Shown: positions 10,235-32,371, numbered from the stretch's first letter. The stretch is DNA of 64,000 nucleotides from an uncultured Gammaproteobacteria bacterium (GCA_964540825.1 CAZINT010000004.1:88835-152834), one strand, 5' to 3'. Translations and numbers: made by a program. The notes: generated by a model from the sequence alone, not told the origin.

Positions 10235-10349
10235 AGATTCCGAATAAAAGACTAATTAATCTTCCACACTATACCTAAGTACCCCAAATATCGCAAGGGA
10301 AACCATTGACTTCTCTTTCTGGGGTGCTATACTAACGACGTTAAATTTC

Positions 10350-10425: not shown

Positions 10426-10554
10426 CTTTCGGCTTACGTTAGCCACTCTGTAGAATAAACTTCAAAAATACATTCAGCCCCCGACCCCTTTCGTCCAAAA
10501 TGCGGTCGTCGGCTCATGATACTGCAAGCAGATTTTTGCAGTATTTTTTGTTCT

Positions 10555-11448: not shown

Positions 11449-11506
11449 CTCTATTTGCCAAATTCACCTCTTTGCCTTAGAATAGTTTAAAGTCTGTTTT
11501 CTTTCT

Positions 11507-12247: not shown

Positions 12248-12445
12248 CTGCCATGACAACCATAGACAGTGGAACCCTAAAAGCAAGTTACGCGGATTTT
12301 TCTAAATTCAACTCCAGCAGAAGCCCCGTAACAGGAAGCTTTCCTGGGAAAAATCTAGAGAGCACAAAAGACCACAACGCAGACTACAATGTTTTTAAAG
12401 GTTCTTATTCATACCCTATAAAAAGATCACGCTCAGAAAAAATCG

Positions 12446-13063: not shown

Positions 13064-13153
13064 AGAAATCCACATGTAAACAAGGGTTTGCCTAATTTAA
13101 GATTTAAAGGCTGTGCAGTCTTAAAATACCTCATTAAGGATGGGGTGTTTTTA

Positions 13154-13996: not shown

Positions 13997-14229
13997 AAAA
14001 TTTTAATTGTAGCTGTTGTGTAAATTAACTATTGCTTTCTTCTAGAGCATACAGTATTCTATATTTGCTGCCTATATTAATCAAAATAACCCTTTCACGG
14101 GCGACTGTTTCTATAGCCAATTGTGGCTAGAGATGGACAGTCGCACCTCCACAATTGGAGCCCGTAAGGGTTTTGATTAATGTGGGCAGCAGGTCGGCTG
14201 TCCTTTTTTATTTCAGCCCTTAAATACCT

Positions 14230-15183: not shown

Positions 15184-15264
15184 AACACCATAAAATTATA
15201 GAGAAAAACAGGGCAAACACCCTGCTTTTTTCTTATTTAAAACATCTTAAAAGAATCATACTAT

Positions 15265-16557
15265 ATGATATACTCCTATCATATGAATGATCCAATTCGT
15301 CGTAAATTAACCGGGGAACTATCTATAAGCGCTGACTATAAAAATAACGAATCTACAAAATCTGTTGTTTTTCGTCGTTTAGTTGAAAAAAAATTTGTAG
15401 AAAGTATTCCCAGGGAAAAACTAGAGGAAATGATTCGGAACGATCTTAAAAAAGTTTCTATCACACCTGTAAATGGCATATTTAACGCTCACCAGTTATT
15501 TCACTATACTAATTCTGATTTTTTAAAAGATTTTGACTTTGGAAACACCTTGATTCAAGCTCATATACCATATTGCCTTCATTTTCCCAATCATTACGAA
15601 ATAATTGTAGATATTCCTGAAAAAAAACTAGAAGCCCTTGTTATCTTTGAAAAAATCTGGACGAGCCGCGCCCAAACAGAAGACAAAAAGTCAGATACCG
15701 TTGATTTCTTTGCGGAAGACTGCGTAACTTATTTTAAGGATAGTATTATCCAGACCCCTCAAATACCTTTATCCGCTCAAGAGGGGTGGGAGTCTCTTTT
15801 TACAGGAACGAACATAGAAAAAATGAGTGACCAGAACGGCATTTTTCGTTTTACAAGAGTTCTTATCCAGTTTGATACCAATTTTCCGCAAGATATGAAC
15901 CAGGGCGACTACAAATCTTTGTTGCCACGAGTCGAGGAAATAGCACTTACCGCTATTAACCGCGTAATTGATGTATATCGCGAGGTCACAAATGAATTTT
16001 TCATAAGAAGACTTGGAAGTTTAAATATAAATTTAATTTATTTTATTCCTAAGAATGAAGGTTTTTACCTACTTCCTACCAATATTGAAACAGCAAAGAT
16101 TAACCGATCAGGCAAAGAAATTGAAGAAATATCAGCTAAATTAGAGGCGGGACACAAACCAGAAGTTTACAAGTTACTTTTATTTAACGCATATAGTTCT
16201 TTTGAAACAAAGGATTACACATTGGCTATAGTAGAATCATTCCAGTCTCTAGAAATTTTTTTGGAAAATTATTTAGTAAATCTTTTCAAAGTAAAAAATA
16301 TTCATAAAAAAGAATATCGTAAAATCCTCAAAAAAAACTGGAAGACAAAAGATAGATTAACCGAAGTGCTCAAAAATCTTATTGGGGTGTCTCTCGATAA
16401 ACAACTAAATATTTGGCCTAAATGGTGTGCTCGCTACGATCAAACTCGTAACAGAGTAATACACGGAGGCAAAGAACCATCACCGTTAGAAACCAAGGAA
16501 ACACTGGAAATTAACCAGAAAGTTATTGAATGGCTAAACTCAATAACGACTAAATAA
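15265..16557 (+). CDS. Hypothetical 430-aa protein with C-terminal HEPN-like R-N-x3-H motif (candidate abortive-infection/toxin RNase)
   Basis: C-terminal WCARYDQTRNRVIHGGKEP fits the common RNxxxH HEPN signature; large uncharacterised N-terminal region. Confidence 0.45.
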   Translation: MIYSYHMNDPIRRKLTGELSISADYKNNESTKSVVFRRLVEKKFVESIPREKLEEMIRNDLKKVSITPVNGIFNAHQLFHYTNSDFLKDFDFGNTLIQAHIPYCLHFPNHYEIIVDIPEKKLEALVIFEKIWTSRAQTEDKKSDTVDFFAEDCVTYFKDSIIQTPQIPLSAQEGWESLFTGTNIEKMSDQNGIFRFTRVLIQFDTNFPQDMNQGDYKSLLPRVEEIALTAINRVIDVYREVTNEFFIRRLGSLNINLIYFIPKNEGFYLLPTNIETAKINRSGKEIEEISAKLEAGHKPEVYKLLLFNAYSSFETKDYTLAIVESFQSLEIFLENYLVNLFKVKNIHKKEYRKILKKNWKTKDRLTEVLKNLIGVSLDKQLNIWPKWCARYDQTRNRVIHGGKEPSPLETKETLEINQKVIEWLNSITTK

Positions 16558-16571
16558 CATCTTCAAATCAT

Positions 16572-17366
16572 ATGGTTGTAAATAGTCGTAAATTAAAAAA
16601 CGCTATCTCAAATAATATAAAAAATTACTTTGCCAAGGATAAAACGGTTTTTGATAACCTCAATTCCCTATTCAACCTTTTGTTTGACCACCCGGTTTAT
16701 ATTGAACGAGCTAAAAGGGTGCGGGGTATTTTTCTACTTCCAAAAGACACTGGCCTGTTGTCAGGTGAAGAAGCGTTGGTGTGGGAAAACGATAATGGAG
16801 ATAAATTAAAAAAATTGCGTGACGCCGTCACAAAACTCCTAACTGGTTTTGCTATTCCTGAGGCTTTTCGGGACCGTGTTTTTTATTTTACTTATGACTA
16901 TATTATATCTAAAAATAGCATCCTCTCTTTGTTAGTCGAAAATTTTGATAGCCCAAACCAGAAAGATGAGGGATACAAACGTGCCCCCAAACTACTTAGC
17001 TTCCGCACCGTTCACACCTTACCTGACCGTGAATTGAATAAATATTTGTTGGACACCAACGCCTTATACCTTCAAATAGGCCCTGGTATGAACTTAGCAA
17101 CACTGCAAAAAGTCTACACGGAAGTAATTATGAAAAATAAAGAACAGCTTTTACCGCTTGAGGCACCGAGTCCAGAGGAAAAAGCGCGACTGATCTGGCG
17201 CATGCGAATGGAAAAATTTAGACCTAAAAAAATTATTGAAGTTTTGAAGATAAAGTATATTCATGAGCCAATAAAAATCGACCACCACTTCGTCAAAACA
17301 AATACTTACCGCTACACCAAAGCACTTCAGACACTCAAGATGTTTGATCCAAAAAAGTATTTATAA
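16572..17366 (+). CDS. Hypothetical protein (island cargo)
   Basis: 264-aa ORF 14 nt after previous gene, followed by clean terminator. Confidence 0.45.
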   Translation: MVVNSRKLKNAISNNIKNYFAKDKTVFDNLNSLFNLLFDHPVYIERAKRVRGIFLLPKDTGLLSGEEALVWENDNGDKLKKLRDAVTKLLTGFAIPEAFRDRVFYFTYDYIISKNSILSLLVENFDSPNQKDEGYKRAPKLLSFRTVHTLPDRELNKYLLDTNALYLQIGPGMNLATLQKVYTEVIMKNKEQLLPLEAPSPEEKARLIWRMRMEKFRPKKIIEVLKIKYIHEPIKIDHHFVKTNTYRYTKALQTLKMFDPKKYL

Positions 17367-17367
17367 A

Positions 17368-17396
17368 AGAGCTTGCTAAAAAGCTCTTTTTCTTTT
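17368..17396 (+). terminator. Rho-independent terminator
   Basis: AAGAGCTT-gctaaa-AAGCTCTT followed by TTTCTTTT. Confidence 0.65.
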
Positions 17397-17500
17397 AACA
17401 AGTGTGCCAATATTTTTATCGGCTGATTTTTGTTACCCTAGGGTCAGTGTTTGCACGATAGCGACCACAATCTCATGTCCATAATGTCCTAGTTAAAAAT

Positions 17501-17965
17501 ATGCAGCCAAACGAAAAAGAGGACTTTGATTTAAAGTCGCTTGAAATTCAAGAGCGCAGACAAAAGGTCGAACAGTTTCATATTCAAGGCTTTTCTATCC
17601 TGCGGATGGCCCAAGAGTTAAAAGTAAACCCCCGAACCATTGTTCGCGACATTCAGGCGAACCGACAAGAACGGCTCTCTATGCTTGATGGGTACAGTGG
17701 AAGCATAGACTGGCTCCGTAACAGACTTGGTGATCACGTCAGTCTTATGGATAACGCCCGCTACCGCTTACTGCAAATTGCCGAAAACTCTACAGATGAC
17801 ATGGTAAAAGCTAAAGCCTTAAAACTCGCCACAGAGGTCGACAAAGACACTGTCGATACAGTTCTCAAACTTATGTGGTCGTTTAAAGATTTTATGTATG
17901 CTGGACCCTACCTTGCTAGACCTGTCGGCCTTAAAAAAGAGGACGGACTTCAGGAAAAAGCGTAA
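17501..17965 (+). CDS. Small HTH-containing protein (possible excisionase/regulator of the island)
   Basis: FSILRMAQELKVNPRTIVRDI helix-turn-helix-like segment; immediately upstream of second integrase. Confidence 0.45.
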   Translation: MQPNEKEDFDLKSLEIQERRQKVEQFHIQGFSILRMAQELKVNPRTIVRDIQANRQERLSMLDGYSGSIDWLRNRLGDHVSLMDNARYRLLQIAENSTDDMVKAKALKLATEVDKDTVDTVLKLMWSFKDFMYAGPYLARPVGLKKEDGLQEKA

Positions 17966-18132
17966 ATTTTCCCTTTCCTTGAAGCCGCCTTATAAAAACA
18001 TTTCTGAATGTCCGCCAGAGAAAAAGACTGATTACCTATTCTATCTGTACTTACGTGGCATGCAAACCGGCAGCGGACCGGATGTTAGAAGGTTTCTTGC
18101 AGCCACTAATCAATTGCCAGAAAAAAAATCTT

Positions 18133-19083
18133 ATGACTCACAGCCTACAAGAACTGCATAAACAATTTATAAGGGAAAAAGAACTGGTTGATGAGTTTCG
18201 GCCTGCAACTTCAACAAATCATCGGGTAACTCTTGATTTACTATTAAAATTTAATCCTGCTATAACCCTAGCAGATCTAACCTATACTACTATGCTTGAT
18301 TTCTTTCAATTTCTAAAAAAACGCACAAGATTAGTTAGCGGAAGTGCTTCCAAACAAGGAGTTAAAACATCGACCTTAGCCACCCATTACGGAAAGCTGA
18401 ACACCTTTCTTAAGTGGCTTATCGTACACAACCACTTAGCGGAGAATCCTTTAAAGGACATCCCCTACCCCGAACCTGATTATAGTGATCGTCGGGCTTT
18501 AGACGAAAGTGAGTTGGCAAAAATTTTCGGCGCACTAGAGCACGGCATTGCCTACACCGATCTTTTTCGAAAAAAGCGTGACGCTGCTATATTTGCGGTA
18601 CTGCTTGGATGCGGCTTACGAAAAAATGAGCTTGTTAATCTCAGACTTATTGATATCAATCTCGAAAAACGTGAGCTTCGTGTGCGAAAGGAAACTTCTA
18701 AATCGAAAAAAGATCGTCATGTAGGTTTGAATTCAGACGTCACCATGCGTCTTGAAGATTACCTAAAAGCCCGCAGTGAAAAAGGCTACCAAAATGAATA
18801 CTTGTTTGTTTCCACAACTCATGACAATAGGTTTACAGCTAACGGTTTGAAGCACCTGATTCAAAGAGTCATCAGCGCTTCTGGGGTAAAATTTCACCCT
18901 CACCGTTTCCGCCACACCTTTATGTGGAACGCTGTACGTGCCGGAGTGCATATTGTTAAAATTCAACAAATGATGGGACACAAAGATCTACGCATGCTTC
19001 TTACCTATGCTCGTGGTATGCCTGCTAACAGTATGCTTGGTGATATGGAGCGAATACATCAGCAGCACTTCTATAGAAAATAA
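18133..19083 (+). CDS. Tyrosine-type site-specific integrase/recombinase (island integrase 2)
   Basis: HPHRFRHTFMWNAV...GH...LLTYA catalytic signature; ORF opens at 18055, 18133 Met gives typical length. Confidence 0.85.
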   Translation: MTHSLQELHKQFIREKELVDEFRPATSTNHRVTLDLLLKFNPAITLADLTYTTMLDFFQFLKKRTRLVSGSASKQGVKTSTLATHYGKLNTFLKWLIVHNHLAENPLKDIPYPEPDYSDRRALDESELAKIFGALEHGIAYTDLFRKKRDAAIFAVLLGCGLRKNELVNLRLIDINLEKRELRVRKETSKSKKDRHVGLNSDVTMRLEDYLKARSEKGYQNEYLFVSTTHDNRFTANGLKHLIQRVISASGVKFHPHRFRHTFMWNAVRAGVHIVKIQQMMGHKDLRMLLTYARGMPANSMLGDMERIHQQHFYRK

Positions 19084-19265
19084 TTGCTTTTCTGCCATGA
19101 ATTTGATACTTTACAGATACTTTATTCAGCAAAAACTGCACGCATTTCACCGAGTCAGTTTGGGCAGAGAAGCGGTCGCGGGCACTGATGTAAATTCGAG
19201 TAAAATTCTACACTATTTTATCTCAACCAAGCCATGAAACCCATGTATTGGGACCGGTTGAATTG

Positions 19266-19309
19266 ATGGCATGGAAGAGGTCAAGGGTTCAAGTCCCTTA
19301 AGGTCCACA
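19266..19309 (+). repeat. attR: 44-nt copy of tRNA-Ala 3' half (direct repeat copy 2)
   Basis: Exact match to 10382-10425, followed by the tRNA's original terminator. Confidence 0.85.
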
Positions 19310-19335
19310 AAAACGGTATGCATACCGTTTTTTTA
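19310..19335 (+). terminator. Rho-independent terminator (original tRNA-Ala terminator)
   Basis: AAAACGGTATG/CATACCGTTTTTTT perfect hairpin plus U-tract. Confidence 0.75.
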
Positions 19336-19401
19336 TTTTAGTTTATAACTAAACGTAAATTTTAAGCATTAAGGAGAGCTCTATACGGCCGTACCACTTG
19401 T

Positions 19402-19430
19402 TTGACACTACGAATTAAAACTGTCATTAT
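19402..19430 (+). promoter_or_regulatory. Sigma70-type promoter (TTGACA-17-CATTAT) for GC-rich lipoprotein gene
   Basis: TTGACA at 19402-19407, 17-nt spacer, CATTAT at 19425-19430; AAGGAGG RBS at 19464-19470. Confidence 0.5.
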
Positions 19431-19476
19431 CCCAACAGCCTCTCGGCTTTTTTGCCGAAAAATAAGGAGGAACACC

Positions 19477-19923
19477 ATGCGTTCACAGACGAGCTTGTTG
19501 TTGGTCGTCGTGGCACTTCTTGCCTCCGCCTGCACGCCGCAGCTGCAGGTTCGGGACCCCCGCCCGGAGATGAGGTCGGGCACGGTCTTCATGGCTGCAC
19601 AAGCCATGGCCGTGATGCCGATCAAGTTCGTCCCTGCTCCGCTGCCCTCCAAGCCGGGCATGTCCTACGCGTTCGATCTGAATGACGGCTTCGGAGAGCG
19701 CACGCTGCGCTGCCCAGGGAGCTACTCGCTCCGGGTGGCGCTCCGGCGCCTGGACGAAAAGGATGATCGTCAGATCGTCTATCCGCCCACTCGCGACACG
19801 AGAGGGCAAACCTCGATCACGATCGACCCCGTCCGTGCCAAAGGAGTGTATCCGGGAGTGCAGGTCGCCTACCTGGTCGACTGCATGATCCCGCCGCCTC
19901 GCGTGGCGACCCGAACGCCCTAA
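19477..19923 (+). CDS. Putative lipoprotein, strongly GC-rich gene (compositional outlier)
   Basis: AAGGAGG-6nt-ATG; signal/lipobox MRSQTSLLLVVVALLASAC; GC-rich third codon positions unlike neighbours. Confidence 0.55.
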   Translation: MRSQTSLLLVVVALLASACTPQLQVRDPRPEMRSGTVFMAAQAMAVMPIKFVPAPLPSKPGMSYAFDLNDGFGERTLRCPGSYSLRVALRRLDEKDDRQIVYPPTRDTRGQTSITIDPVRAKGVYPGVQVAYLVDCMIPPPRVATRTP

Positions 19924-20045: not shown

Positions 20046-23000
20046 TTATGGCGTGCTGGTTGGCGTCTCACTTTCCTCCGCCACGGACGGCGTTGAGCTT
20101 GCATCACTGGGCGGGGCTCCATCGAGCGCTGCGGTTGAAGAAGCCACCTCGACAACTGGTGTTTCCGCGGGAGAGGCGTCTAGCGTAGTCGTTGAAACGG
20201 TTTCAGGAACAGGATTACTTTTATTTTGATCTCGCCGTTTAGCGACCACAATCCAGTCAAACGTAGCAGTGCCAGCACTACCGTCAATTTCCCTTACCAC
20301 AAAACCTTGAGCTGATTTTTCAGCAACATAGACGCCCTTTGAGCCTGCTGAGGTAAGCGTCACCGTTACTTTAAGCGGCTGAGCCTGGTCAATAATATCC
20401 TGCGTTCCTTGATCGAAGACAATGCGTGCTTCGCCCGCGACAAGTGCGGACGAACTCGAGAAGACAAATTCTGATGTGGGCGACTGAACAGCAAACATAT
20501 CTTGCGTCCCGACCGATGTAGTAAGATGTGTTATAAAATGCCCCTCAGCATCAATAGACCATTTTTTATCTTTCGAAGTAATTGCCGCAACATTCAAAAG
20601 CACATGGCCTTGCAGGTTTAAATCACCGCCTTGATACATTAATTGTCCTTTTGGTGCTTCAACTTTCAAGTCATTACCACCATTTGCAAGATCAATGCCT
20701 TGAGCTGTTGCGAGCTGTTCTAGGTTAGTTTGGAGCGAGGTAATATTTTTGTTTTGTGAGTAGGCCCAACCGGTTCTAATGAGCGCGGGGATTTTTCCTT
20801 CGGTTCCACTGAAGGGGTCAAGCGCAATACCAATCACCCCAACCATCTTTTGGCTGTTATCAAGTGTGGGATCGTATTTCATCGCGTAGCCGGGTTTCGA
20901 CGATGCCACAAGAAGATCTCCGCGATTAATCAAACCATTTTCATTAACTACTTTAACCGGCACACGGCCAACCATAGCAAGCACAGCGGTAGTATCGGTT
21001 TTGCCCCTGCCTACCACGATGGTTGGGTTGGTTGAAATGACACCAGCAACTGCCACATCGTATGCCGCACCGCTGCGGCGATAGGTGTCCGGACTATTTG
21101 GGTCAACAATCATAACATCCCCAGCTTCAGCAATATCGTCAGCAGCTATATCTACACGTTCAGCTAAATCGCCGGGATTAGTCGAGGATCCAAAGGTTGC
21201 GCTCGCACCATAATAATTTCCCACGGTATTAACGTCACCATTAGCTGCTACGGAGAAAACCGGCGTGTCGTGCGCTCGGAGTGAAAACACAATTCGATCA
21301 GGCGTACTGGTTGGCGCAAAATTTGCGGCATTTAAAATAAACGCCCTAGCATTAGCAAAATCGCCCACATTTGAAGTTAAAAGACTACTTGTGGCAAACG
21401 AAATGGTATTGAGCGATGTCGAGAGGAGCGACAAGTTACCGTTGAGTGCAAAGTTATACGGCGTTGTTGAACTGCCGACAATAATATTCTTATTTTCCGT
21501 ATCAATGGTAAGTGTTTGGTTGAGGTTGCTCGTTGCCGCAGCGGACGAATCAATATTTACAAAGGTCGTAATCGTACCGCTGCCATTACCGGTAAAGTTT
21601 TCCATCGCAATACCAATAGTTGGCTGACCTGCCACAGCCTTAACCGCAACACCTGAAATTGACGAAGCGGAAAGTTTGTCCCCAACAGTAATTGGGCCGT
21701 TAAGGCTAGAAACAACTAAAGGCACGCGACCAGCCAAGGCCAGCGAGACCATTTTGGTTCCACTTGCAAAAACCGCGTCCTCCGGCCCCCACTCTGTCAG
21801 CAGCAGACCAGGTTTAGTCGAAACGATACCAATAGCGTGCGGGTGATCTTTAATATCAGCTTTTACTACTCGATTAGGATTATTTTTATCAAGCGCAACA
21901 ACATCACCTGGTTTTAAGGTTGGATCATCTGTCAGATATGATTCAGCTAAATCAAACCCGGAAAGATATGCTTGTTTGGCATAAATTTCTTGAGAATAGA
22001 TCTTATAAAAATACTGCCGTGAGTTACCGAGTGAAGTGCCTGAAAGAGCCGTTGTCGTCCTGCACCCGCCATTATCGAAATCATTGTCTGAGCACCCCTG
22101 CCACATCATCAGGTCTCCGGTGTCTGATTTGTAGTAAAAAGCAGTGAGGACACCGGCACCACTACGAACTAAAGACAGACCCTTGGTGTAATTAAAGGGG
22201 TCTGGCGACCCAAAAGGAAGTTGTGAATTTGTTCCTGAATAACAATTTACGCTGCCGCAGGAATAAATAAAGGGGTCGGTATCTGAATCAGTTATACGCT
22301 TTAAAAATGCAACTGCAGGTATTCCTCTACTGTCTATAGCAATACTTGGCCACGCCCCCTGGCTGCTCGTATGGTTTCCAACGGAAAGTGAGGTCTGTGA
22401 GATATTTGAACAAGCTGCGCTTTGACACGGACCAAAATACACGTTTGCATCTCCGTCATCATAGTAAGCTAAAAAAGGAACGCTTAACCCGCCAGGGCTT
22501 CCGGATTGGAAACCTCCATCAGCTTTGGCCATGCCAAGAGTAATATAACCACCTTCGTTTCCAACGTTATTGTCAATGGTATTGCCAAAAGAAAATGACG
22601 CACAGCGGATTGCTTGACAGTGAATCATCTTGATGGCGTTATTATTATCCTTAAACGCTATAAGTGGTGTGCCGTCTGAGGCGATAACCATTTTGATATA
22701 AGGATCAGTAGCGAGACTGGTTGACAGCGTAGAAGAAGCATCAAAGGCCGAACAATCCTCAGCAGTACAGTGTTTAAAAAGCAGATTATTTTCTGTTGAA
22801 TTTTGGTATGCTACTACCGGCATTCTATCCTGACCAACCGCTACTGCACTATATTTTCCATTATCCGAAAAAGTATCAAGCGTTCGGATACTAGCGGTAC
22901 TACAATCAACACTATAGCATTTCGCTAATTTAAGTTTTTGGTTAGTCGCATCATAATAAGTAAGAATCGGATACCCATCCGCACTGATGACCATAGAGGG

Positions 23001-26000
23001 ATTCTTACCGACATCCCCGGTCGAATCCAGGACTACTTCCGTATGAGAAGAACAGTTTTGAACACTACAGTGCATGACTATAAGATCAGCATTAGTAATG
23101 TCGTAATACGCAACAACCATAAGGTTATCACTGCCAACAACGGCAACTGGATAAGCGCCCACATCGTTTGTGGACACTAAAGTGCTTGAAGTACTTGTTG
23201 CGTTGCCTGCAATAGCGGTTGACGTAACGACACCGCTCAAAGGTACGATATTGCCCGCAATTTGGAGCGTACCGGAGCTAAAGATATTCCCGCTGCTATC
23301 AATATAAAGCCGACCAAGAGCATAAGCAGTGCTTGTATTAACCACAACCGCGGAAGTACGAGTAAATGTAGTTGTTGCCGAAAAAGTATTAAAACCAGTA
23401 AAATTTTGATCAGCTGTCAAAGAGGCTACATTAGCACCTCCGCCACAACCACTGCACGAGCCTACTGTAAGCGTTCCGATATAACCACTCGTTACATTTA
23501 AATTTTGAATGGTTGAACTTGCTGCTGTTGTGGTTGTAAATGTAGACGTTGCACTTACCCCGAGTGTTCCGGCAACATCTAATAAATTTACTGGCGCGCC
23601 AGTACCAATCCCCACATTGCCGCCAAAAATACCCAGCGTGTTTGCTTGGGATATAAAACCTGAAGCACCTCCGAGCCCAAAGCCAATTGAGTTAGTTCCG
23701 CCGCCGGTAATGGTCATATTTGTCCCAAGGGCAATTGAGTTGTTGCCTAGAGCGTGCGCTCCATTACCAAGCGCAATGGACGTGTCACCCCCAGCTTCAC
23801 TGCCAAAACCAGCTGCAAAAGCATTTTGATTCGTTACCGAGTTGCTACCGCCAAATGCAGCGCCATTATTTCCCGAAACGCTATTGCTTGCCCCCACCGC
23901 AATACCACGATCACTAACAATATTATTAAAACCAGCTGCAAAAGCATCACCCCCACTTGCAGTATTCCCCGTACCAAACACAGCCGAAGTATTTCCACTC
24001 GCTTTATTATTAAGGCCAAAAGCAACTGAATAATTTCCGATATTAGCATCGTCCCACTGTGTATTATTAACCGAACCAGCCCGAAACGCCGCTTTGTTTG
24101 GCACCCACATCAAACGAACACCTGCTCCATCATACGGTGTGACACCCGCCTCTCCAAGTGTGCCGATCGCCAAAATCGCCCCGTCTTTTATGGTAAATTT
24201 TGCCACCGGTGTTGAAGTGCCCACGCCAAGGCCACCGGAAAAGGAAGAGGTGGCGCTAAAAATATTTGAACCGGTAAATGTCTGATCAGCCGAGAGTGAT
24301 GCGCCTCCACCAGCCGAACAGCCTGTACACGTTCCAGTGACAACTAAATTGGTAATATTAGCCCGGGTGATCGAACTGCTGGCCATTGTAGTAGTGGTAA
24401 AAGTTGATGTACCCGTTACTGCAAGTGTACCGCCCACTGTCAAAAGTGAACTTGGAGTCAGTGTGCCGATACCAACATTACCGCCCATAATCGCTAACGT
24501 ATTGTTTTGGGAAAGCGTGCGAGAATTTGTATCAAGACCAATACCAACCGAATTATTTCCACTCACCGAAATTCTTGAGCCAAGCGCAATTGCCGAGGTT
24601 CCACCGGCGCTATTATTGGCACCGATCGCCGTAGAACCGGTGCCACCTGCAGAGGTATTGCCTGTACCGATCGCTGCTGCCGAGCTTGCGCCGCTCACCG
24701 TGTTGCTCAAACCAGCTGCAAAACCACCGCCGCCGCCATTAATAGTATTGCTCGTTCCAAAAGCAGCTGAGTAGGTTACTGTGACGTTATTACTGCCACC
24801 AAAAGCAACTGAGCCAGTTTGAGTAACCGTATTGCCGGTTCCACCTGCAAATGCCCTATCACCTGACACCTGATTATTTTCGCCAAAAGCAGCTGAATAA
24901 ACTCCGATATTTGCCGCATCCCACTGCGCCCCATTTATATAGCCCGCTCTAAAGGCGGCTTTGTTCGGAATCCACATAAGCCGCGTACCTGCACCATCAT
25001 ACGGAGTTGTACCTGCCCCGCCAAACGTTCCGACGGCCAAAACCGCTCCTTCACTCACCGTTAGCTTGGCTACTGGTGTTGACGTTCCCACACCAAGCCC
25101 AGCGCTAAACGAAGACGTCGCGCTAAAAACATTGGCACCAGTAAAGGTTTGGCTTGCCGATAACGACGCACCACTCGCTGCACAGCCAGTACACGTACCA
25201 TTTATAACTAAATTGGTAATATTGGCATTCGTAATGGTTGAACTGGCAATAGTCGTAGTTGTAAACGTGGTCGTAGCACTGAATACATTTAGGCCTGTAA
25301 AAGTCTGATTACCTGCTAAATACCCTAGCACGCCTGTGCCCCCAATGCTTGCTAAATTAATACCGCTTACCGTTCCATTAACTACCAAGTTGGAAACATT
25401 TGCATTGGCAATACTTGAACTAGCTATAGTAGTGGTGGCAAACGTCGATGTCGCACTAAAGGTATTGAGGCCAGTAAATGCTTGGGTATTGCCGAGATAT
25501 GCCAAAACACCCGTCCCAAAAATACTTCCGAGAGAAATGCCACTTACCGTACCGTTTACCGTTAAATTAGTGATGTTTGCAGTGCCGATTGTCGAACTGG
25601 CAACTGTTGTTGTGCTAAGTGTTGTAGTAGCGTTAAAAGTGTTTAAACCATTAAATATTCCTGAACCATTAACAACTAAACTATCCGCGGTCAGAGCATT
25701 AATACCGGTAATATTGTTACCTCCAAGCATTAAATTGCCGGCGAGCGTTCCGCCGGCGAGCGGTAAATAGTTACTTGCCGTGATAGAATCAGCCACCATA
25801 GCATCAGTAATACTGTTCGAGGGTAAAGAAACCGACCCATTAACCGTTAAGGCAACAATATTCGCACTATTTATAGTACTGCTAGCAATGGTAGAGGTTG
25901 TAAAAGTAGTCGTAGCATTAAAAACATTGGCCCCAGCAAAAGTTTGTGAATTAGCAAGGTAGGCCAAAACACCGGTACCACCAACACTCCCTAAATTTAG

Positions 26001-26828
26001 GCCGGTCAATGTACCTGTCAAATTTAAATTATTAATCGAAGCATTCACTATAGTAGCGGTGGTAATCGTTGAACTTGCCGCTGTTGTTGTTGTAAAGGTC
26101 GTAGTAGCACTAAACGTATTAGCGCCCGTAAAAGTTTGCGTACCGGCAAGCGACGCGTCACCTGTTCCTGACCCACAGCCCACACAACTACCGGTTACTA
26201 CCAGATTAGTAATATTTGCATTCGTGATCGAAGAACTTGCCGCAGTTGAAGTAGCCAGTGTCACAAAACCGGTACTGGTAACATTGGTGAACCGAAAACC
26301 ACCTTGACTGTCTGACAATGGAATATACACCGAACTTGACGCCGTATTTAAACCGTAGCCATTTAAAAAACCCGCATTAATAGCATAGGGGCTAGCCGTA
26401 ATTTGCTTGCGCGGCGTCAGGACTTCAGCACCTACCACAAGCTGCAGGTATATCCCTGAATTATTTCTAAAAATACCCGGATCAAGCGGGTTCGTACCCG
26501 CCCCGCCTAAATCCACACTAAATATACCGCTTGAGGGCGTAATACTGAGCGCAGCCGGAGTCGCTACTGTACCAGCCGCGGTGTATAACAAATTACCTGC
26601 AGTAGCAGCATCGTAAAGTAAAAACTGAATGTTAAGTGCTGTATCGATTGGTGTATTGGTGCTATCTAAAATTTTGCCTTGGTACGTTACTATTGAGGGT
26701 GGCGCCGCCGGGGCAGCACGTCCAATTTGAGAAAACAAAAAAGCTCCTACAAAAAACAAAAACAAGCCAATGAAGAAGAATTCCCGGCGCACGCGAACGG
26801 AGTGAGTCTCTCTATTTTTTACATTCAT
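20046..26828 (-). CDS. Giant repeat-rich surface protein (2260 aa) with N-terminal signal anchor, beta-helix/tail-fibre-like repeats
   Basis: Single uninterrupted ORF; N-terminal hydrophobic segment FFFIGLFLFFVGAFLF; ~40-aa Thr/Ser-rich repeats (TFTGANxFSATTTF...SSTIxNANITNL), YadA-head-like SxAxG runs, CxxC 'AYYD' repeats, duplicated C-terminal beta domain; paralogous to 26909-32371. Confidence 0.85.
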   Translation of the reverse strand: MNVKNRETHSVRVRREFFFIGLFLFFVGAFLFSQIGRAAPAAPPSIVTYQGKILDSTNTPIDTALNIQFLLYDAATAGNLLYTAAGTVATPAALSITPSSGIFSVDLGGAGTNPLDPGIFRNNSGIYLQLVVGAEVLTPRKQITASPYAINAGFLNGYGLNTASSSVYIPLSDSQGGFRFTNVTSTGFVTLATSTAASSSITNANITNLVVTGSCVGCGSGTGDASLAGTQTFTGANTFSATTTFTTTTAASSTITTATIVNASINNLNLTGTLTGLNLGSVGGTGVLAYLANSQTFAGANVFNATTTFTTSTIASSTINSANIVALTVNGSVSLPSNSITDAMVADSITASNYLPLAGGTLAGNLMLGGNNITGINALTADSLVVNGSGIFNGLNTFNATTTLSTTTVASSTIGTANITNLTVNGTVSGISLGSIFGTGVLAYLGNTQAFTGLNTFSATSTFATTTIASSSIANANVSNLVVNGTVSGINLASIGGTGVLGYLAGNQTFTGLNVFSATTTFTTTTIASSTITNANITNLVINGTCTGCAASGASLSASQTFTGANVFSATSSFSAGLGVGTSTPVAKLTVSEGAVLAVGTFGGAGTTPYDGAGTRLMWIPNKAAFRAGYINGAQWDAANIGVYSAAFGENNQVSGDRAFAGGTGNTVTQTGSVAFGGSNNVTVTYSAAFGTSNTINGGGGGFAAGLSNTVSGASSAAAIGTGNTSAGGTGSTAIGANNSAGGTSAIALGSRISVSGNNSVGIGLDTNSRTLSQNNTLAIMGGNVGIGTLTPSSLLTVGGTLAVTGTSTFTTTTMASSSITRANITNLVVTGTCTGCSAGGGASLSADQTFTGSNIFSATSSFSGGLGVGTSTPVAKFTIKDGAILAIGTLGEAGVTPYDGAGVRLMWVPNKAAFRAGSVNNTQWDDANIGNYSVAFGLNNKASGNTSAVFGTGNTASGGDAFAAGFNNIVSDRGIAVGASNSVSGNNGAAFGGSNSVTNQNAFAAGFGSEAGGDTSIALGNGAHALGNNSIALGTNMTITGGGTNSIGFGLGGASGFISQANTLGIFGGNVGIGTGAPVNLLDVAGTLGVSATSTFTTTTAASSTIQNLNVTSGYIGTLTVGSCSGCGGGANVASLTADQNFTGFNTFSATTTFTRTSAVVVNTSTAYALGRLYIDSSGNIFSSGTLQIAGNIVPLSGVVTSTAIAGNATSTSSTLVSTNDVGAYPVAVVGSDNLMVVAYYDITNADLIVMHCSVQNCSSHTEVVLDSTGDVGKNPSMVISADGYPILTYYDATNQKLKLAKCYSVDCSTASIRTLDTFSDNGKYSAVAVGQDRMPVVAYQNSTENNLLFKHCTAEDCSAFDASSTLSTSLATDPYIKMVIASDGTPLIAFKDNNNAIKMIHCQAIRCASFSFGNTIDNNVGNEGGYITLGMAKADGGFQSGSPGGLSVPFLAYYDDGDANVYFGPCQSAACSNISQTSLSVGNHTSSQGAWPSIAIDSRGIPAVAFLKRITDSDTDPFIYSCGSVNCYSGTNSQLPFGSPDPFNYTKGLSLVRSGAGVLTAFYYKSDTGDLMMWQGCSDNDFDNGGCRTTTALSGTSLGNSRQYFYKIYSQEIYAKQAYLSGFDLAESYLTDDPTLKPGDVVALDKNNPNRVVKADIKDHPHAIGIVSTKPGLLLTEWGPEDAVFASGTKMVSLALAGRVPLVVSSLNGPITVGDKLSASSISGVAVKAVAGQPTIGIAMENFTGNGSGTITTFVNIDSSAAATSNLNQTLTIDTENKNIIVGSSTTPYNFALNGNLSLLSTSLNTISFATSSLLTSNVGDFANARAFILNAANFAPTSTPDRIVFSLRAHDTPVFSVAANGDVNTVGNYYGASATFGSSTNPGDLAERVDIAADDIAEAGDVMIVDPNSPDTYRRSGAAYDVAVAGVISTNPTIVVGRGKTDTTAVLAMVGRVPVKVVNENGLINRGDLLVASSKPGYAMKYDPTLDNSQKMVGVIGIALDPFSGTEGKIPALIRTGWAYSQNKNITSLQTNLEQLATAQGIDLANGGNDLKVEAPKGQLMYQGGDLNLQGHVLLNVAAITSKDKKWSIDAEGHFITHLTTSVGTQDMFAVQSPTSEFVFSSSSALVAGEARIVFDQGTQDIIDQAQPLKVTVTLTSAGSKGVYVAEKSAQGFVVREIDGSAGTATFDWIVVAKRRDQNKSNPVPETVSTTTLDASPAETPVVEVASSTAALDGAPPSDASSTPSVAEESETPTSTP

Positions 26829-26908: not shown

Positions 26909-29900
26909 TTAAGGGTTTGAAGCGGAAGCATCGGCGGGCGTGCTGCTGGCGGCAACATTTAAAACTGTACTCGTACTTTCAGGGGACGGCCCACTGGTAA
27001 TTTCCGGATTCTGGGTGCTAAAGTTAGCTGAATCCATACTTTCCACCGTACTCGTTACTGCGCCTGAATCTTCGTCGGCATTTTTAGAAAAATCACTCGG
27101 CGCTTCGGGCGCAGGCATTGCTTCTGACGGCGGAGTGATTAAGTTATCAACAGGCGTAGTTGGAACAAGCCAATAATCAAAGGCCACATCTTCTTCTGCG
27201 GGAGTATCCAGCATAATTGTAAATGCACCCGCCTCCTTGTTTGAAACCCACCAAAAATGCTTGGGGTTATTTACGAAGGTGACAAAAATCTTAGTACTGG
27301 TGGTAAATAGACTGTTTTCCACTCGAACACTTGATTCGCCATTATTAATTGTTGCTTGTCCGATAGTTGTTTTGCTTTGATCTGAATTTGGCGTAATAAC
27401 AAGTTGTTTGGTGACAACCTGGTCGGCAGTCAATTTTTTAACACGGGCATTTCCTTGTTCGTCAATTTCCCAAGCATTATTCACGCCCTGAACCCGACCC
27501 ACCGCCAGAAGCGCGCGGCCCCCGAGCGATAAATCTTTAGCCAAAGTAATACGGCCTTCTTCGCTTGTGACGCTCATTGTTTCTACGTTTGCACTAAGAT
27601 TTTCGCTATTAGTGCCGGCCAAACTATCCACCGTTGCCTGTAAATCTGTTAGGGTCTTGGTCTGGCTATAGACCCAGCCGGTGCGGATCAAGGCGGCGAT
27701 TTTGCCTTGTTCTGCAGTAAGCGGATCGAGCGCAATACCAATGATACCAACCACTTTCGAACTTACATCAAGCGTTGGATCATACTTCATGGCGTAACCT
27801 GGGCGCGACGAAGCCACCAGCAAGTCACCACGCTGAATTGAGCCGTTTTCGTTAACCACTTTAACCGGAACACGACCGACCATCGCCAAATTTGCCGTAT
27901 AATCAGTTTTGCCTTTACCTACCACGATTGTTGGATTACTGGAGATTACCCCGGCAACAGCGCTGTCATACGAAGTGCTGCTGCGGCGATAGGTATCCGG
28001 ACTGTTGGGGTCAACAATCATAACATCCCCTGCTTCCGCAGTATCGTCGCTGGCAATATCTACTCTTTCAGCCAAATCCCCCGGGTTCGTTGACGAACCA
28101 AAGGTAGCACTGGCCCCATAGTAATTGCCGACCGTGTTTACGTCGCCGTTTGCAGCAACCGAAAATACCGGCGTATTATTTGAACGCAGTGAGAAAAGAA
28201 TGCGATCAGAGGTGCTTGTCGGCGCAAAATTCGGCGCATTAAGAATAAAGGCCTTGGCATTTTCAAAATCCTGAACATTGGCCGCAAGAAGCGTGGTGGT
28301 CGAGAATGATACTTTTACGATTGACGGATCAACCACAGACAGGTCGCCGTTTAAGACAACTGAATACGGCTCAGTTGATGTGCCAAAGGTAATAGAGTGG
28401 TCTGTGCTATTCACTGTGAGTCCTTGGTAAATATTACCAGATGATCCTGAATCAAGGTTTACAAAAGCCGTGATAACCCCGGTCGTACTACTTACAAAAT
28501 TATCCATTGCAATGGCAACAGTTCTTTTGCCGGTCGCTCGAGCTGCTGTACCTGGCGTATCAGAAAGTTCCAAACGGTCACCTACATGAATGTCACCATG
28601 GCTTGAATTAACCTTTACCGGTACACGTCCGGACAGCGCTACCGGAACATGGAAGCCGCCCGAACTGCTGTTTTTCCATTCTGACAAAAGTAAACCCGGC
28701 TCAGTTGATACAATCCCGATTACTTCATCAGCCGCAACCGCTCGCCGTACATACCCCGGACGCTCCGGATCAAACGCCACAACGTCCCCCGCGCCGAGTG
28801 TTGGGTCGCTCGTAGGGTAATCTTCGGCCACGTCAAACGCTGCAACCTGAAATCTTTTCCCAAGAAACTGATTGGCAAAAACATTATTGAAGTAAGCTCC
28901 TGCACTGCCCAAGTTTTGTCCGCCGCTAACTACCTGCGTGCTTGTAGCAATACAATCAATATCAGCACACCTTAAAAAATTAAGTTTTGAATTCCCGTAA
29001 TATGCCACTATCGGCAAACCATCGGCTCCTATCGCCAAGCTGTTGCCGTAACCTGTAGCCGATGCGCCATCAAGCAGTGTTGATGTGGACCCGTAGTTGC
29101 AGTTCGCTTCACCGCACGTATAGGCAAAGAGCTTAAAAGTGGTAGTCGCCGACTGATATACCGTAATAACACGCCCGTCAACACCAACTTTAATTGAATT
29201 ATAAAAACCCGGAAAAGGTACGTTGGAGTCAACTTCTTGGCCGGCTGCGCTGCCGCTTGTACAGTCTGCAGCGTTACATTTAAAAATAAGAAAACGATTA
29301 AAAAAGCTTTCCCGATAACTTATAACCGGGAAGTTATCGTTTCCGATGGTCATGGAAATAAACCTTCCCGGATCGCCGGTAGTATCCAGTGTAGTAATAA
29401 AAATTTTGCTTGTTACAGTACATGACGGTTCACCACATCTAGCAAAAACAACTGAATCATTTGTTGCGTTATAATAAGCCATTACCGGTCTTCCGTCCGT
29501 TGGAATTGCCAGCGTTACCTGTTGCCCTACATTGGACCCTGAGGTATCAACTCCCGTATCTGTTCGAGTGTTGCATGACAGATCGAGACAATGAATAAAC
29601 CTAACATCCGCATTGGCATCGTCGTAATAAGCAATCGCCGGCAAACCATCCTTGCCGACAGCAAGCGATAAATATGAACCTCCGAAATTTACGAACGAAT
29701 TACCTATACTAACAATATCTCTTGAGGAACAATCTAAGTTTGTACAGTGATAGAAGTTAATTCTCTGCCGAAAAGAATCGTATATAGCAACCGCTGGAAA
29801 ACCGTCTGATCCAACCACGGCTGAGACATCATTACCGCCTGCATCACCACCAAAAAGCGTGTTCTGTGTCGCAATTGTAGCACAAGTAACGTCAGCACAT

Positions 29901-32371
29901 TTTACAAAATTAAAATCCCCACCATCCTTATAAAATACAAGCGGCAACTTATCAGTACCAACTACCAAAGAAATTATTTGCTCACCGGAAAAGCTCATGG
30001 AAGCATCAAGTGTGCGCGTAACAAAAGCTGCGGCCGTATAGGTTGGAATTGTAGTAGGCAAAAGATTACCCGCAAATTGAATCGAACCTGAGGATGAAAT
30101 ATTTCCGTTACTGTCAATATAAAATTTACCCTGGTTACTGCCAGCCGCCTGTCCTAAGACCAAACTACTGCTATCTAAAGTGGAGGTTGTAACACCGTTC
30201 GAAACCACCACTCCGCTTTGGACATTCAAATACCTCCACCTTGTCGACGAGGCACCCAAATCATACAGATTATTGATTGAAGGGACGATATCCCCTGCCA
30301 CTGTAGTTGTTGCCAAAGTTGTAGTCGCAGCAAATGTATTTAAGCCAATAAATGTTTGATCCGCACTTAGCGACGCTCCAGCACCCGCACACCCCGTACA
30401 GTTGGTTACCGTTAAGCTGGTAATTGTCGCCGTGTTGGCAAAAAGCGAGGTGATGTTGCCGCTTTCAATGGTCGAGCTTGCAGCGGTTGTAGTTACAAAC
30501 GTTGAGGTTGCGCTCACACCCAAGGTACCGCTGACCGACAATTTAAACCCCGGATCAACCGTACCGATTCCGACCGATCCACCAAGGATTCCGAGTACAT
30601 TGCTCCGACTAATAGTCCCGCCTGTTCCAAGCCCTATGCCAAACGACCCACTTCCATTTACCACCATGCTTGTACCAAATGCCAGACTATTATTCCCCGC
30701 GACTGCGTTCGACTGACCGGCTGCAAAGCTGTACGATCCGTTGACTGTATTTGATTCGCCAAATGCGCCTGACCAATTTCCTCCAACCGAGTTTCCTTGT
30801 CCATAACCAAATGAATACTGACCGTTAACGGTATTATTAAAGCCGCCAGCAAAAGAGCCTTGATCGCCCGCAGTGTTACCATTGCCAAACGCAGCAGCAA
30901 AATTACCGCTAACCGTATTGCTTCGCCCAAAAGCAAATGCGCCGTTTCCGCCGCTTACTGTATTACCAAAACCACCCGCAAAACCGTAGTCTGCACTGAC
31001 CTGGTTATTAAAACCAAAAGCAGCCGAATTAGTGCCGATATTTGCCGCGTCCCACTGCGCGGCATTCACCGATCCGGCTCTAAACGCACTTTTGTTCGGT
31101 ATCCACATGAGCCGCGTTCCCGCTCCTTCATACGGGGTGCCACCAACAGTTCCAACAGCTAAAATACTTCCATCTTGGATGGTAAGCGCAGCGAGTGGCG
31201 ACGAGGTGGCTATTCCTACGGCGGTTGCAAAAGTGCTGGTAGCAACAAATGAAGCCGGACCACTAACTGCTAAGGTGGAAGAAGCGTTCAAAGCACCTGT
31301 TACTGTAAAAGTGCTTGTTACAGTTGACGAAGCAGCGATAAAACCACCATTTAAAATGGACAAACCAGTGTTAGTAAGAGTTCCGCTCAGGCTGAGGGAA
31401 TTTAGCCCGGTGATATTGTTGCCGCCAAAAGCAACACTTCCGGTCAAAGTGCCGCCAGCAAGGGCCAAATAATTGCTTGCCGTAATCGTGTCTTGAACCA
31501 TTGCGTCTGTAATCGAATTGTTTGGCAAGGTAATCGTACCATTTACTCGTAGGTCGGTAATATTTGCCGTTCCCGCTGTTGAACTAGCGATTGTTGTGGT
31601 GGTAAACGTGGTTGTCGCCGAAAAAGCATTGAGCCCGGTAAAGCTTTGGTTGTTCGCCAAAAATGCTAGCACCCCAGTTCCTGAAATACTCCCAAGCGGC
31701 AGCGTGAGGCCGCTAATGGTCCCGCTCAGATTTAAATCTCTAATATTAGCAGTCGTAATTGTAGTGCTTGCTATAGTTGATGATGAAAAAGTACTGGTTC
31801 CCGAGACAAATATGTTAGTACTGCTGATAGTATTAAATTGAAAATTTCCTTGACTATCCGAAACTGGAATATACGCTGAGCTTGAAACAGTTTTTGCTCC
31901 AAATCCACCAAGATACAAACTGTTTAGGGCATACGGGGCAGCTGTAATTTGCTTACGCGGTGTCAAAACCTCTGCGCCAATAGTTATCTCTAAATACACA
32001 CTTCCGTTATCTCTAAAAATTTCTGTGCTCAGCGGATTTGTCCCCGTATCACCAAAATTAACACTAAATATACCGCTTGAGGGTGTAACACTTATTGCCG
32101 CCGGGGTACCGAGCGTTCCGCCAGCTGTATAGAGCGCATTGCCTGCGGTAGGCGCGTCGTACAAAACAAACGTCATGTTCGTCGCCGTGCTGATTGGCAC
32201 ATTGGCACTACTCAAGAGCTTTCCCTGGTAGGTTATCATTGACGGCGGATTGGCCGCACGAACTGTTGATAAAGCCCACAAAAACGAACTGGCAAAAAAT
32301 AAAAACAGGCCGACGAGAAAAAATATCCGGCTTTTTGAAGCTGAGTCTTTATATTTCTGCAAAACCTCCAT
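26909..32371 (-). CDS. Giant repeat-rich surface protein (1820 aa), tandem paralog of the 2260-aa protein
   Basis: N-terminus and C-terminal ~230 aa about 80-90% identical by eye to the downstream paralog; same repeat classes. Confidence 0.85.
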   Translation of the reverse strand: MEVLQKYKDSASKSRIFFLVGLFLFFASSFLWALSTVRAANPPSMITYQGKLLSSANVPISTATNMTFVLYDAPTAGNALYTAGGTLGTPAAISVTPSSGIFSVNFGDTGTNPLSTEIFRDNGSVYLEITIGAEVLTPRKQITAAPYALNSLYLGGFGAKTVSSSAYIPVSDSQGNFQFNTISSTNIFVSGTSTFSSSTIASTTITTANIRDLNLSGTISGLTLPLGSISGTGVLAFLANNQSFTGLNAFSATTTFTTTTIASSTAGTANITDLRVNGTITLPNNSITDAMVQDTITASNYLALAGGTLTGSVAFGGNNITGLNSLSLSGTLTNTGLSILNGGFIAASSTVTSTFTVTGALNASSTLAVSGPASFVATSTFATAVGIATSSPLAALTIQDGSILAVGTVGGTPYEGAGTRLMWIPNKSAFRAGSVNAAQWDAANIGTNSAAFGFNNQVSADYGFAGGFGNTVSGGNGAFAFGRSNTVSGNFAAAFGNGNTAGDQGSFAGGFNNTVNGQYSFGYGQGNSVGGNWSGAFGESNTVNGSYSFAAGQSNAVAGNNSLAFGTSMVVNGSGSFGIGLGTGGTISRSNVLGILGGSVGIGTVDPGFKLSVSGTLGVSATSTFVTTTAASSTIESGNITSLFANTATITSLTVTNCTGCAGAGASLSADQTFIGLNTFAATTTLATTTVAGDIVPSINNLYDLGASSTRWRYLNVQSGVVVSNGVTTSTLDSSSLVLGQAAGSNQGKFYIDSNGNISSSGSIQFAGNLLPTTIPTYTAAAFVTRTLDASMSFSGEQIISLVVGTDKLPLVFYKDGGDFNFVKCADVTCATIATQNTLFGGDAGGNDVSAVVGSDGFPAVAIYDSFRQRINFYHCTNLDCSSRDIVSIGNSFVNFGGSYLSLAVGKDGLPAIAYYDDANADVRFIHCLDLSCNTRTDTGVDTSGSNVGQQVTLAIPTDGRPVMAYYNATNDSVVFARCGEPSCTVTSKIFITTLDTTGDPGRFISMTIGNDNFPVISYRESFFNRFLIFKCNAADCTSGSAAGQEVDSNVPFPGFYNSIKVGVDGRVITVYQSATTTFKLFAYTCGEANCNYGSTSTLLDGASATGYGNSLAIGADGLPIVAYYGNSKLNFLRCADIDCIATSTQVVSGGQNLGSAGAYFNNVFANQFLGKRFQVAAFDVAEDYPTSDPTLGAGDVVAFDPERPGYVRRAVAADEVIGIVSTEPGLLLSEWKNSSSGGFHVPVALSGRVPVKVNSSHGDIHVGDRLELSDTPGTAARATGKRTVAIAMDNFVSSTTGVITAFVNLDSGSSGNIYQGLTVNSTDHSITFGTSTEPYSVVLNGDLSVVDPSIVKVSFSTTTLLAANVQDFENAKAFILNAPNFAPTSTSDRILFSLRSNNTPVFSVAANGDVNTVGNYYGASATFGSSTNPGDLAERVDIASDDTAEAGDVMIVDPNSPDTYRRSSTSYDSAVAGVISSNPTIVVGKGKTDYTANLAMVGRVPVKVVNENGSIQRGDLLVASSRPGYAMKYDPTLDVSSKVVGIIGIALDPLTAEQGKIAALIRTGWVYSQTKTLTDLQATVDSLAGTNSENLSANVETMSVTSEEGRITLAKDLSLGGRALLAVGRVQGVNNAWEIDEQGNARVKKLTADQVVTKQLVITPNSDQSKTTIGQATINNGESSVRVENSLFTTSTKIFVTFVNNPKHFWWVSNKEAGAFTIMLDTPAEEDVAFDYWLVPTTPVDNLITPPSEAMPAPEAPSDFSKNADEDSGAVTSTVESMDSANFSTQNPEITSGPSPESTSTVLNVAASSTPADASASNP

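Follow-up and report, generated by a model that had tools for sequence, protein, structure and literature searches.

A putative disulfide-stapled seven-bladed beta-propeller in two giant fibre-like proteins of an uncultured bacterium

The window analysed here is a stretch of 64,000 nucleotides (nt) from an uncultured bacterium (GCA_964540825.1, CAZINT010000004.1:88835-152834). It harbours two giant open reading frames (ORFs), A and B, which adjoin each other on the minus strand, encode paralogous fibre-like proteins and each contain a tandem array of a cysteine-bearing repeat (Table 1). An earlier note, made from the sequence alone, had drawn attention to these arrays. In this article we describe the repeat, its predicted fold and its relatives, and outline what they imply for its role; we estimate at roughly 0.6 the probability that the arrays form extracellular seven-bladed propellers, which serve as disulfide-stapled, probably glycan-binding recognition heads on fibres resembling trimeric adhesins. 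The genome appears to be Patescibacteria-like (candidate phyla radiation, CPR), since the nearest named relatives of its YchF protein come from Candidatus Magasanikbacteria and Patescibacteria (70-73% identity).

The order of modules is largely shared by the two proteins. In A, an N-terminal signal or transmembrane anchor is followed by a “TYQG” domain, threonine-rich fibre modules, two left-handed beta-roll regions that resemble the head of YadA, the seven-bladed propeller, two “DLAE...GRVPVKV” modules and finally a Ser/Thr/Pro-rich tail; B follows the same order with one beta-roll head region. The N-terminal hydrophobic segment of A is a signal peptide or membrane anchor, which puts the protein outside the cytoplasm. 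The “TYQG” domain has no Pfam model. Among 225 propeller-family proteins, 19 from other phyla also have it at their N-terminus, and the two unnamed domains therefore travel together. The unit “DLAERVDIA...GDVMIVD...GRVPVKVV” is present in two copies per protein, both C-terminal to the propeller. Overall, the architecture of A and B looks like that of a surface fibre or adhesin.

The beta-roll regions of A match the Pfam family YadA_head (PF05658; 27 bits compared to a cutoff of 25) and, in a sequence search of the Protein Data Bank (PDB), chains of CbpF (E = 2.5e-7), UspA1, BpaC and YadA. Heads of this kind suggest a trimeric fibre that carries the propeller. Since Pfam and NCBIfam scans of the whole A and B proteins found no C-terminal beta-barrel translocator, the carriers are not classical trimeric autotransporter adhesins. 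Each threonine-rich fibre module is closed by a CxxC motif (“NLVVTG[ST]C[VT]GC”), which lies N-terminal to the propeller and is separate from its repeat; if the fibre is trimeric, these motifs might staple a single chain, or else link chains or bind metal on the three-fold axis. “CxxC”, the label under which the earlier note had introduced the repeat, is thus ruled out as a repeat motif and belongs to the fibre modules, while the pattern written out in the same note fits the C-x4-C spacing described below.

The tandem units do lie where they had been placed, in both giant ORFs, and the array of A falls inside the interval 21950-23200 that had been given for it. Units were defined by listing all cysteines and cutting at the Cys pairs, which are regularly spaced at 50-56 residues and start at amino acids (aa) 1254, 1304, 1354, 1404, 1468, 1524 and 1579 in A and at aa 825, 876, 928, 979, 1032, 1086 and 1135 in B. 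Seven units per protein were counted instead of the approximately eight proposed, and the period is about 50 aa (48-64, typically 50-51) instead of about 45. The pair ends each blade and is spaced as C-x4-C in 13 of the 14 units, including all seven of B, and as C-x9-C in unit 7 of A. All units align on a common pattern, i.e., a hydrophobic stretch, G, xDG, P, (V/I)(A/S)YY(D/N), xTN, L and C-x4-C, in which “AYYD” is unbroken in only about half of the cases. Read as a blade, the motifs would run from strand A (“TxD”) via a loop (“sxGdvG”) to strand B, the hairpin “xDGxP”, strand C ending in “YYD”, the turn “xTNx”, strand D (“LKvAx”) and the C-x4-C ring. The exceptional ring that closes blade 7 of A (“CSDNDFDNGGC”) resembles a DxDxDG calcium loop and might, going by this likeness, bind calcium; the ring and the entire last blade are 100% conserved in the orthologue introduced below.

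The repeat is far beyond chance. An independent hidden Markov model (HMM) of the blade, built solely from proteins of other organisms and applied with Z set to 1e6, scored A at E = 6e-42 and B at E = 2e-65 and resolved all seven blades in B and six of the seven in A. An HMM of the 14 units themselves, for which the test is circular, was run against the six-frame translation of the window and retrieved nothing else (next best E = 0.5).

The segments aa 1197-1603 of A and aa 775-1150 of B were modelled with AlphaFold2, using an alignment of 50 homologues. Both models are all-beta, with a predicted local distance difference test score (pLDDT) of 85.6 and a predicted template modelling score (pTM) of 0.87 for A, and 89.8 and 0.90, respectively, for B; the latter comprises exactly 28 strands, four per repeat. 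With confidence, the models predict that each array is a closed seven-bladed beta-propeller, in which one repeat of about 50 aa makes up one four-stranded blade. Ring closure at seven is supported independently of the models by the number of blades in family proteins (n = 225), which peaks at 7 (76 proteins), 14 (52), 21 (7) and 28 (2). Two folds had been envisaged in the earlier note: the beta-propeller was borne out by the models, whereas a beta-sandwich array was rejected on the basis of these and of the blade counts in multiples of seven.

Foldseek comparison of either model with the PDB placed the seven-bladed lectins PLL, PHL and PLL2-5 on top. The matches of A to PLL/PHL reach E values around 1e-11 and target-normalised TM scores of up to 0.78; the first 21 matches of B are all PLL/PHL (E around 1e-14, TM 0.74-0.80), and the range for both models together is 0.72-0.80. 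The matches that follow are without exception carbohydrate-active propellers, namely the lectin CV39L, a rhamnose-glucuronate lyase (7esn), the glycoside hydrolase BT3686 and sialidases, and in BFVD there are matches to phage fibre-like proteins.

Enzymes among the neighbours raise the alternative that the propeller is itself an enzyme (a polysaccharide lyase, a glycosidase or sialidase-like), which the fibre would deliver to degrade the envelope polysaccharide of a host. Depolymerases are frequently found on phage tail spikes, and relatives of A and B graze BNR_4, the family of the seven-bladed PL25 ulvan lyases (PMC13193363). Yet, the E values of the lectin matches are better than those of the enzyme matches by about four orders of magnitude for B and about three for A, and near-identical blades in multiples of seven suit repeated binding sites rather than a single asymmetric active site. 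Furthermore, the positions conserved across blades are those of the scaffold (G, D, P, Y and C), and A and B stay below every enzyme family threshold in Pfam and NCBIfam. An enzymatic propeller is therefore an unlikely solution compared to a binding head.

The repeat region of A and B has no match in scans of Pfam, NCBIfam or PHROGs. Curated propeller repeats, including WD40, Kelch, NHL, PQQ, FG-GAP/VCBS, RCC1, PD40 and YVTN, were not detected in A or B at E<=1 (Pfam, NCBIfam), nor in seven well-conserved homologues apart from one sub-threshold PD40 match. Scans of these 7 and then of 40 homologues left the repeat region without anything above noise except BNR_4 (PF15892), which is grazed by 15 of the 40 better-conserved family members (best E = 7e-14) over one blade's worth of the model (positions 200-270) and matched at 52 bits by a Cys-free relative, P0066. 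The matches of these members are single-blade or summed sub-threshold pieces. A and B do not match BNR_4 at E<=1, relatives alone reaching the gathering threshold of 27.3 bits, and their domain lies near but not within this family. Entries for DUF1936, SpdB and FliC_SP proved to be sums of matches to motifs of about 14 residues, with no single stretch passing. Among PDB sequences, searches at E<=10 with a single protein (phmmer), a domain profile (A1) and a blade profile (A3) retrieved no relative and no PLL/PHL chain; matches to an aminotransferase, LolA and a glyoxalase are due to chance only.

Beyond curated databases the repeat is widespread. A word-indexed search retrieved 76 relatives (E down to 1e-100, 25-36% identity) from Anaerolineales, Actinobacteria, Ilumatobacter and unnamed metagenomes, and an exhaustive profile search of 1.84 billion cluster representatives yielded 25,134 proteins at E<=1e-3 and 8,734 at E<=1e-30; the resulting figure of about 25,000 family clusters was counted at 50% identity. 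Genome loci of the family were found in Anaerolineae, Chitinophagales/Flavipsychrobacter and Terriglobia, and no conserved gene neighbourhood was seen at the loci in other phyla (L003-L007). Compared to the family consensus blade of 50 letters, the blades of A and B are divergent versions. The domain is best regarded as a diverged CPR representative of a very large propeller lineage, which is marked out by the C-x4-C staple on each blade and absent from every curated resource searched (Pfam-A, NCBIfam and PHROGs). The suspicion that the repeat family is undescribed accordingly holds for these three resources and for PDB sequences, in none of which a named repeat family covers the arrays; it fails insofar as the repeat is special neither to these proteins nor to CPR bacteria, being one divergent member of a huge, uncurated family that crosses phyla. 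According to the earlier note, its idea would be refuted if the repeat confidently matched an established family and had nothing distinctive about it; such a match was found at the level of the fold (PLL/PHL) and not at that of the sequence family.

Family proteins grow to a length of 7,237 aa. Their partner domains are all extracellular and include PKD, Big_5, SLH, CWB2, DUF11, dockerin, fn3, LamG, a T9SS sorting domain and collagen. Those smaller homologues that were inspected carry the propeller as their C-terminal domain, after collagen-like or “TYQG” N-terminal regions; in many homologues it is the only large domain besides the anchor or stalk, and many members consist of near-identical blades (e.g., P0006 and P0010). 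Blade variants comprise a C-x3-C form and a Cys-free sister form (“...LKYAxxxGxW”). Such “W-type” blades (“ISYYDxTNxNLKYAxNxSGxW”) also occur on three viral contigs of IMG/VR (L009 5896-7059, L010 5740-7014 and L008 5776-8763), and the gene on L009 adjoins two virion genes, which encode a structural and an internal protein of the particle. A phage origin of the domain was considered and rejected: the relatives on these three contigs, including the one next to virion genes, are all Cys-free.

Cysteine accounts for 98% and 100%, respectively, of the two Cys columns of the family profile. To avoid selecting for cysteine, co-occurrence was counted with a truncated HMM that ends before the first Cys. 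Among 2,016 family blades, 1,409 contain two cysteines (1,367 of them as C-x4-C), 580 none and only 27 a single one, and hence the both-or-none coupling is strong. Cys-free blades sit beside Cys blades within the same proteins, which argues that the pair serves as a staple that a blade can do without and has no part in catalysis or ligand binding. Moreover, each of the 22 cysteines of A and the 16 of B is locally paired, with the partner 3-10 residues away. One disulfide per blade is the most likely arrangement, because the cysteines come as both or none, are all locally paired, lack a further ligand and occur in the company of extracellular domains. The two residues, one terminating the last strand and the other within the linker that leads on to the following blade, would form a short-range disulfide closing a six-residue ring, and thus staple each blade-to-blade connection.

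Strict coupling of two cysteines would also be compatible with metal binding (Zn or Fe), with one structural ion per blade or per pair of neighbouring blades. A histidine precedes the first Cys in about 33% of the family blades, and extracellular disulfides would be less favoured in anoxic settings, where many CPR bacteria are thought to live. However, a blade of 50 aa provides only two thiols, successive pairs are about 50 residues apart, and the family profile reveals no third or fourth metal ligand that is conserved across blades. The four-ligand set of a zinc knuckle or zinc ribbon is likewise missing, as each blade has two cysteines in C-x4-C spacing and no conserved His or further Cys; the preceding His is restricted to a minority of the A and B blades. 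The family also includes Cys-free blades with “GW” in place of the ring, some of them within proteins that have Cys blades, the entire family is extracellular, and the local pairing of every cysteine in A and B is the pattern expected of exported disulfide proteins. We therefore regard a metal site as very improbable: of the two roles that the earlier note had offered for the cysteines, that of a stabilising pair stands, and that of a metal site is less likely than a disulfide.

An orthologous B-A pair in the same order is located at positions 146-11210 of the contig CAZECR010000007.1 (L002); it shares 77% identity with A and 66% with B and retains all 14 Cys pairs. This contig of a metagenome-assembled genome is labelled “uncultured Gammaproteobacteria”, a label that is doubtful given the Patescibacteria-like YchF of the window genome. 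Between the paralogues A and B, identity amounts to 12-35% in the propeller, compared to 45-52% just before and 40-50% after it, and rises to 75-95% in A aa 1821-2020, the module most conserved between the two. Recent gene conversion between A and B was rejected as the source of this near-identical C-terminal module, since its DNA is only 74% identical as opposed to 78-95% for the protein; the same figures suggest that the module and its counterpart in B are under strong purifying selection. Between the orthologues the propeller of B is 44% identical and its flanks 67-93%, while the propeller of A is 80% identical and the domains after it 88-93%. Paralogues and orthologues alike retain the Cys pairs and the DGxP hairpin. 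Of the folded modules, the propeller thus diverges fastest, with its scaffold preserved.

A binding head that determines specificity shows just this pattern, i.e., a fixed scaffold with diverging surfaces, carried by a conserved stalk. The propeller would most likely act as the ligand-recognition head of an N-terminally anchored fibre, and its ligand would probably be a glycan on the surface of a partner or host cell; as with propeller lectins, binding would be multivalent, via repeated sites. The divergence between paralogues and orthologues would then set the binding specificity. Multivalent glycan binding is proposed because of this pattern, the carbohydrate-handling fold neighbours and the near-identical blades.

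Several points weigh against this assignment. The propeller of A contains two Trp residues and that of B none, no Trp is conserved in the family blade profile, and the Trp-lined sugar pockets of PLL are hence without a counterpart. Identity to PLL in structural alignments is 12-18%, with no PDB sequence match, and thus the lectin analogy is one of fold and context. The functions of beta-propellers are manifold, and several of the neighbours in fold space are enzymes, as detailed above. Since synonymous sites are saturated between the orthologues (pS 0.63-0.83), the fast divergence of the propeller could reflect relaxed constraint instead of diversifying selection. Finally, in A and B the propeller is found about two thirds along the chain, not at its tip.

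This position, with about 670 residues still to follow, including the most conserved module, would be in keeping with a propeller that has no external ligand and acts as a structural hub (a spacer, an oligomerisation knob or a folding nucleus), or one that binds a protein rather than a glycan. Propellers are common platforms for protein-protein interactions, and PfCyRPA, a propeller of the sialidase fold with a disulfide per blade, acts purely via protein contacts (PMC5349852). Still, one would not expect a pure spacer to diverge faster than every other folded module and yet hold on to its scaffold. In many homologues the propeller is the sole large domain besides anchor or stalk, and the nearest solved neighbours all handle carbohydrates. 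A structural or protein-binding role is consequently a minor possibility, to which we attach somewhat more weight than to an enzymatic one. The preferred role remains that of a glycan-binding head.

The combination of conserved stalk and C-terminal modules with strongly diverged propellers corresponds to the layout expected of interchangeable receptor-binding heads. Extending the argument to the family as a whole, we tentatively propose, as a scenario with the odds still against it, that the C-x4-C propellers represent a very large uncurated family (at least 25,000 clusters, across bacterial phyla) of disulfide-stapled, multivalent lectin or adhesin heads, and that in CPR episymbionts divergent copies on paralogous giant fibres determine host-cell specificity. 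If true, this would provide a direct sequence handle on the hosts to which an uncultured lineage of Patescibacteria can attach. The propellers of A and B offer a concrete starting point for tests of binding in bacteria whose means of recognising and holding partner cells are largely unknown. A curated model of this blade type, which comprises some 25,000 clusters and has neither a Pfam or NCBIfam model nor a solved structure, would annotate many “hypothetical” surface proteins. A seven-fold blade with a built-in disulfide staple and natural Cys-free sisters also offers a natural comparison for studies on propeller stability and amplification. To specialists in beta-propellers or adhesins, the domain should come as no great surprise.

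The remainder of the window contains type IV pilus genes and, next to the giant-gene cluster, a region (10350-19923) that probably represents one or two integrated elements abutting this cluster, with a tyrosine integrase directly after a tRNA-Ala gene, a second integrase and an SNase-like nuclease within a stretch of low GC content (0.34-0.42 at 12-18 kb). The genes upstream of B (32548-39329, minus strand) share its orientation and appear to form one cluster. They code for a 762-aa TPR protein, proteins of 209 and 309 aa in which no domain is clear, and a protein of 970 aa that combines fn3, PhoD_N-like and CarboxypepD_reg domains with a sub-threshold match to an “acidic double-disulfide repeat”. 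On the minus strand, the genes for a PRPP synthetase and a DUF84 NTPase coincide with a local GC spike at 41848-43459 (0.574 versus about 0.45); a long ORF found on the plus strand (41830-42990) probably represents their shadow.

Table 1. Features of the two giant ORFs and of the surrounding window (positions in nt, counted from the first letter of the window)
Feature	Position	Strand	Remarks
Giant ORF A	20046-26828	minus	2260 aa
Giant ORF B	26909-32371	minus	1820 aa; paralogue of A, adjoins A
Propeller of A	22059-23195	minus	aa 1212-1590
Blades 1-7 of A	23049-23195, 22899-23048, 22749-22898, 22599-22748, 22407-22598, 22239-22406, 22059-22238	minus	
C-x9-C ring of A	22062-22094	minus	aa 1579-1589; closes blade 7
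Propeller of B	28949-30022	minus	aa 784-1141
Blades 1-7 of B	29879-30022, 29726-29878, 29570-29725, 29417-29569, 29258-29416, 29096-29257, 28949-29095	minus	
N-terminal hydrophobic segment of A	26718-26780	minus	FFFIGLFLFFVGAFLFSQIGR; read directly from the sequence
N-terminal hydrophobic segment of B	32264-32326	minus	equivalent of that of A; read directly from the sequence
“TYQG” domain of A	26349-26696	minus	“xTYQGxL...LYD”; N-terminal, after signal/anchor
“TYQG” domain of B	31892-32248	minus	as in A
YadA-head-like beta-roll regions of A (two)	23484-25151	minus	about aa 560-820 and 850-1115; Pfam and PDB sequence matches
CxxC motifs of A	26175-26186, 25182-25193, 24318-24329, 23445-23456 (“SCSGC”)	minus	aa 215, 546, 834, 1125
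CxxC motif of B	30389-30400	minus	aa 658
First “DLAE...” unit copy			A aa 1599-1723; B aa 1147-1260; weak PHROG matches, including a tail-fibre family in B
Module most conserved between paralogues, A	20769-21368	minus	aa 1821-2020
Module most conserved between paralogues, B	27669-28270	minus	
Type IV pilus genes	671-4673		
tRNA-Ala	10350-10424		
Tyrosine integrase	10516-11448		directly after tRNA-Ala
SNase-like nuclease	14230-15183		
Second integrase	18055-19083		

Among published systems, “Cluster 16” of Monzon et al. (2022, PMC9210967) is a propeller-like candidate adhesive domain on stalked surface proteins, which overlaps with BNR_4 in jackhmmer searches and has thousands of homologues in UniProt and MGnify; its function was left ambiguous by the authors. 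Compared by description only, it may be the same family as the A/B propeller. BNR_4 and the PL25 ulvan lyases share the seven-bladed fold (PMC13193363), and BNR_4 is the only curated family touched by relatives of A and B. However, these enzymes have asymmetric blades, a catalytic cleft with a His/Tyr pair plus Arg on the upper face of the propeller and no C-x4-C pair, while in the blade profile of the A/B family no His/Tyr/Arg set is conserved beyond the scaffold Tyr. The Asp-box (BNR) propellers of the sialidase type are second-tier fold neighbours that resemble A and B in having a recurrent Asp/Gly hairpin in each blade. Yet, sialidases are six-bladed, and their hairpin connects strands 3 and 4, whereas motif order and model strands place the “xDGxP” hairpin of A and B between strands B and C; a regular-expression search for the Asp-box motif SxDxGxTW found none in A or B, even in relaxed form.

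The closest published precedent that we found for one disulfide per blade is PfCyRPA, the cysteine-rich protective antigen of Plasmodium, a non-enzymatic propeller with local disulfides in its blades. The parasite uses this protein in host-cell invasion, and one local disulfide stabilises each of five of its six blades (PMC5349852). In contrast to the A/B propeller, PfCyRPA is six-bladed, eukaryotic and non-repetitive, shows no sequence similarity and has its disulfides within blades instead of in a C-x4-C ring at the blade end.

The PLL/PHL “bangle” lectins of Photorhabdus (PDB 5C9L, 5MXE, 6RG2, 6T96, 8Q81-8Q83) are secreted bacterial proteins, the repetitive blades of which give rise to up to seven sugar sites; the pockets lie between adjacent blades and rely on Trp-based CH-pi contacts (PMC6943638). 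Their disulfides link subunits and are not staples of each blade (PMC6943638). Unlike the A/B propellers they are free-standing lectins of about 40 kDa and not domains of giant fibres, and A and B lack two features that define the group, detectable sequence homology and the Trp pockets; a further mark of the group is the binding of fucose or O-methylated sugars. Both sides share seven four-stranded blades of about 50 aa and a superposable fold, and by analogy the domain of A and B would work most like a propeller lectin of the PLL type.

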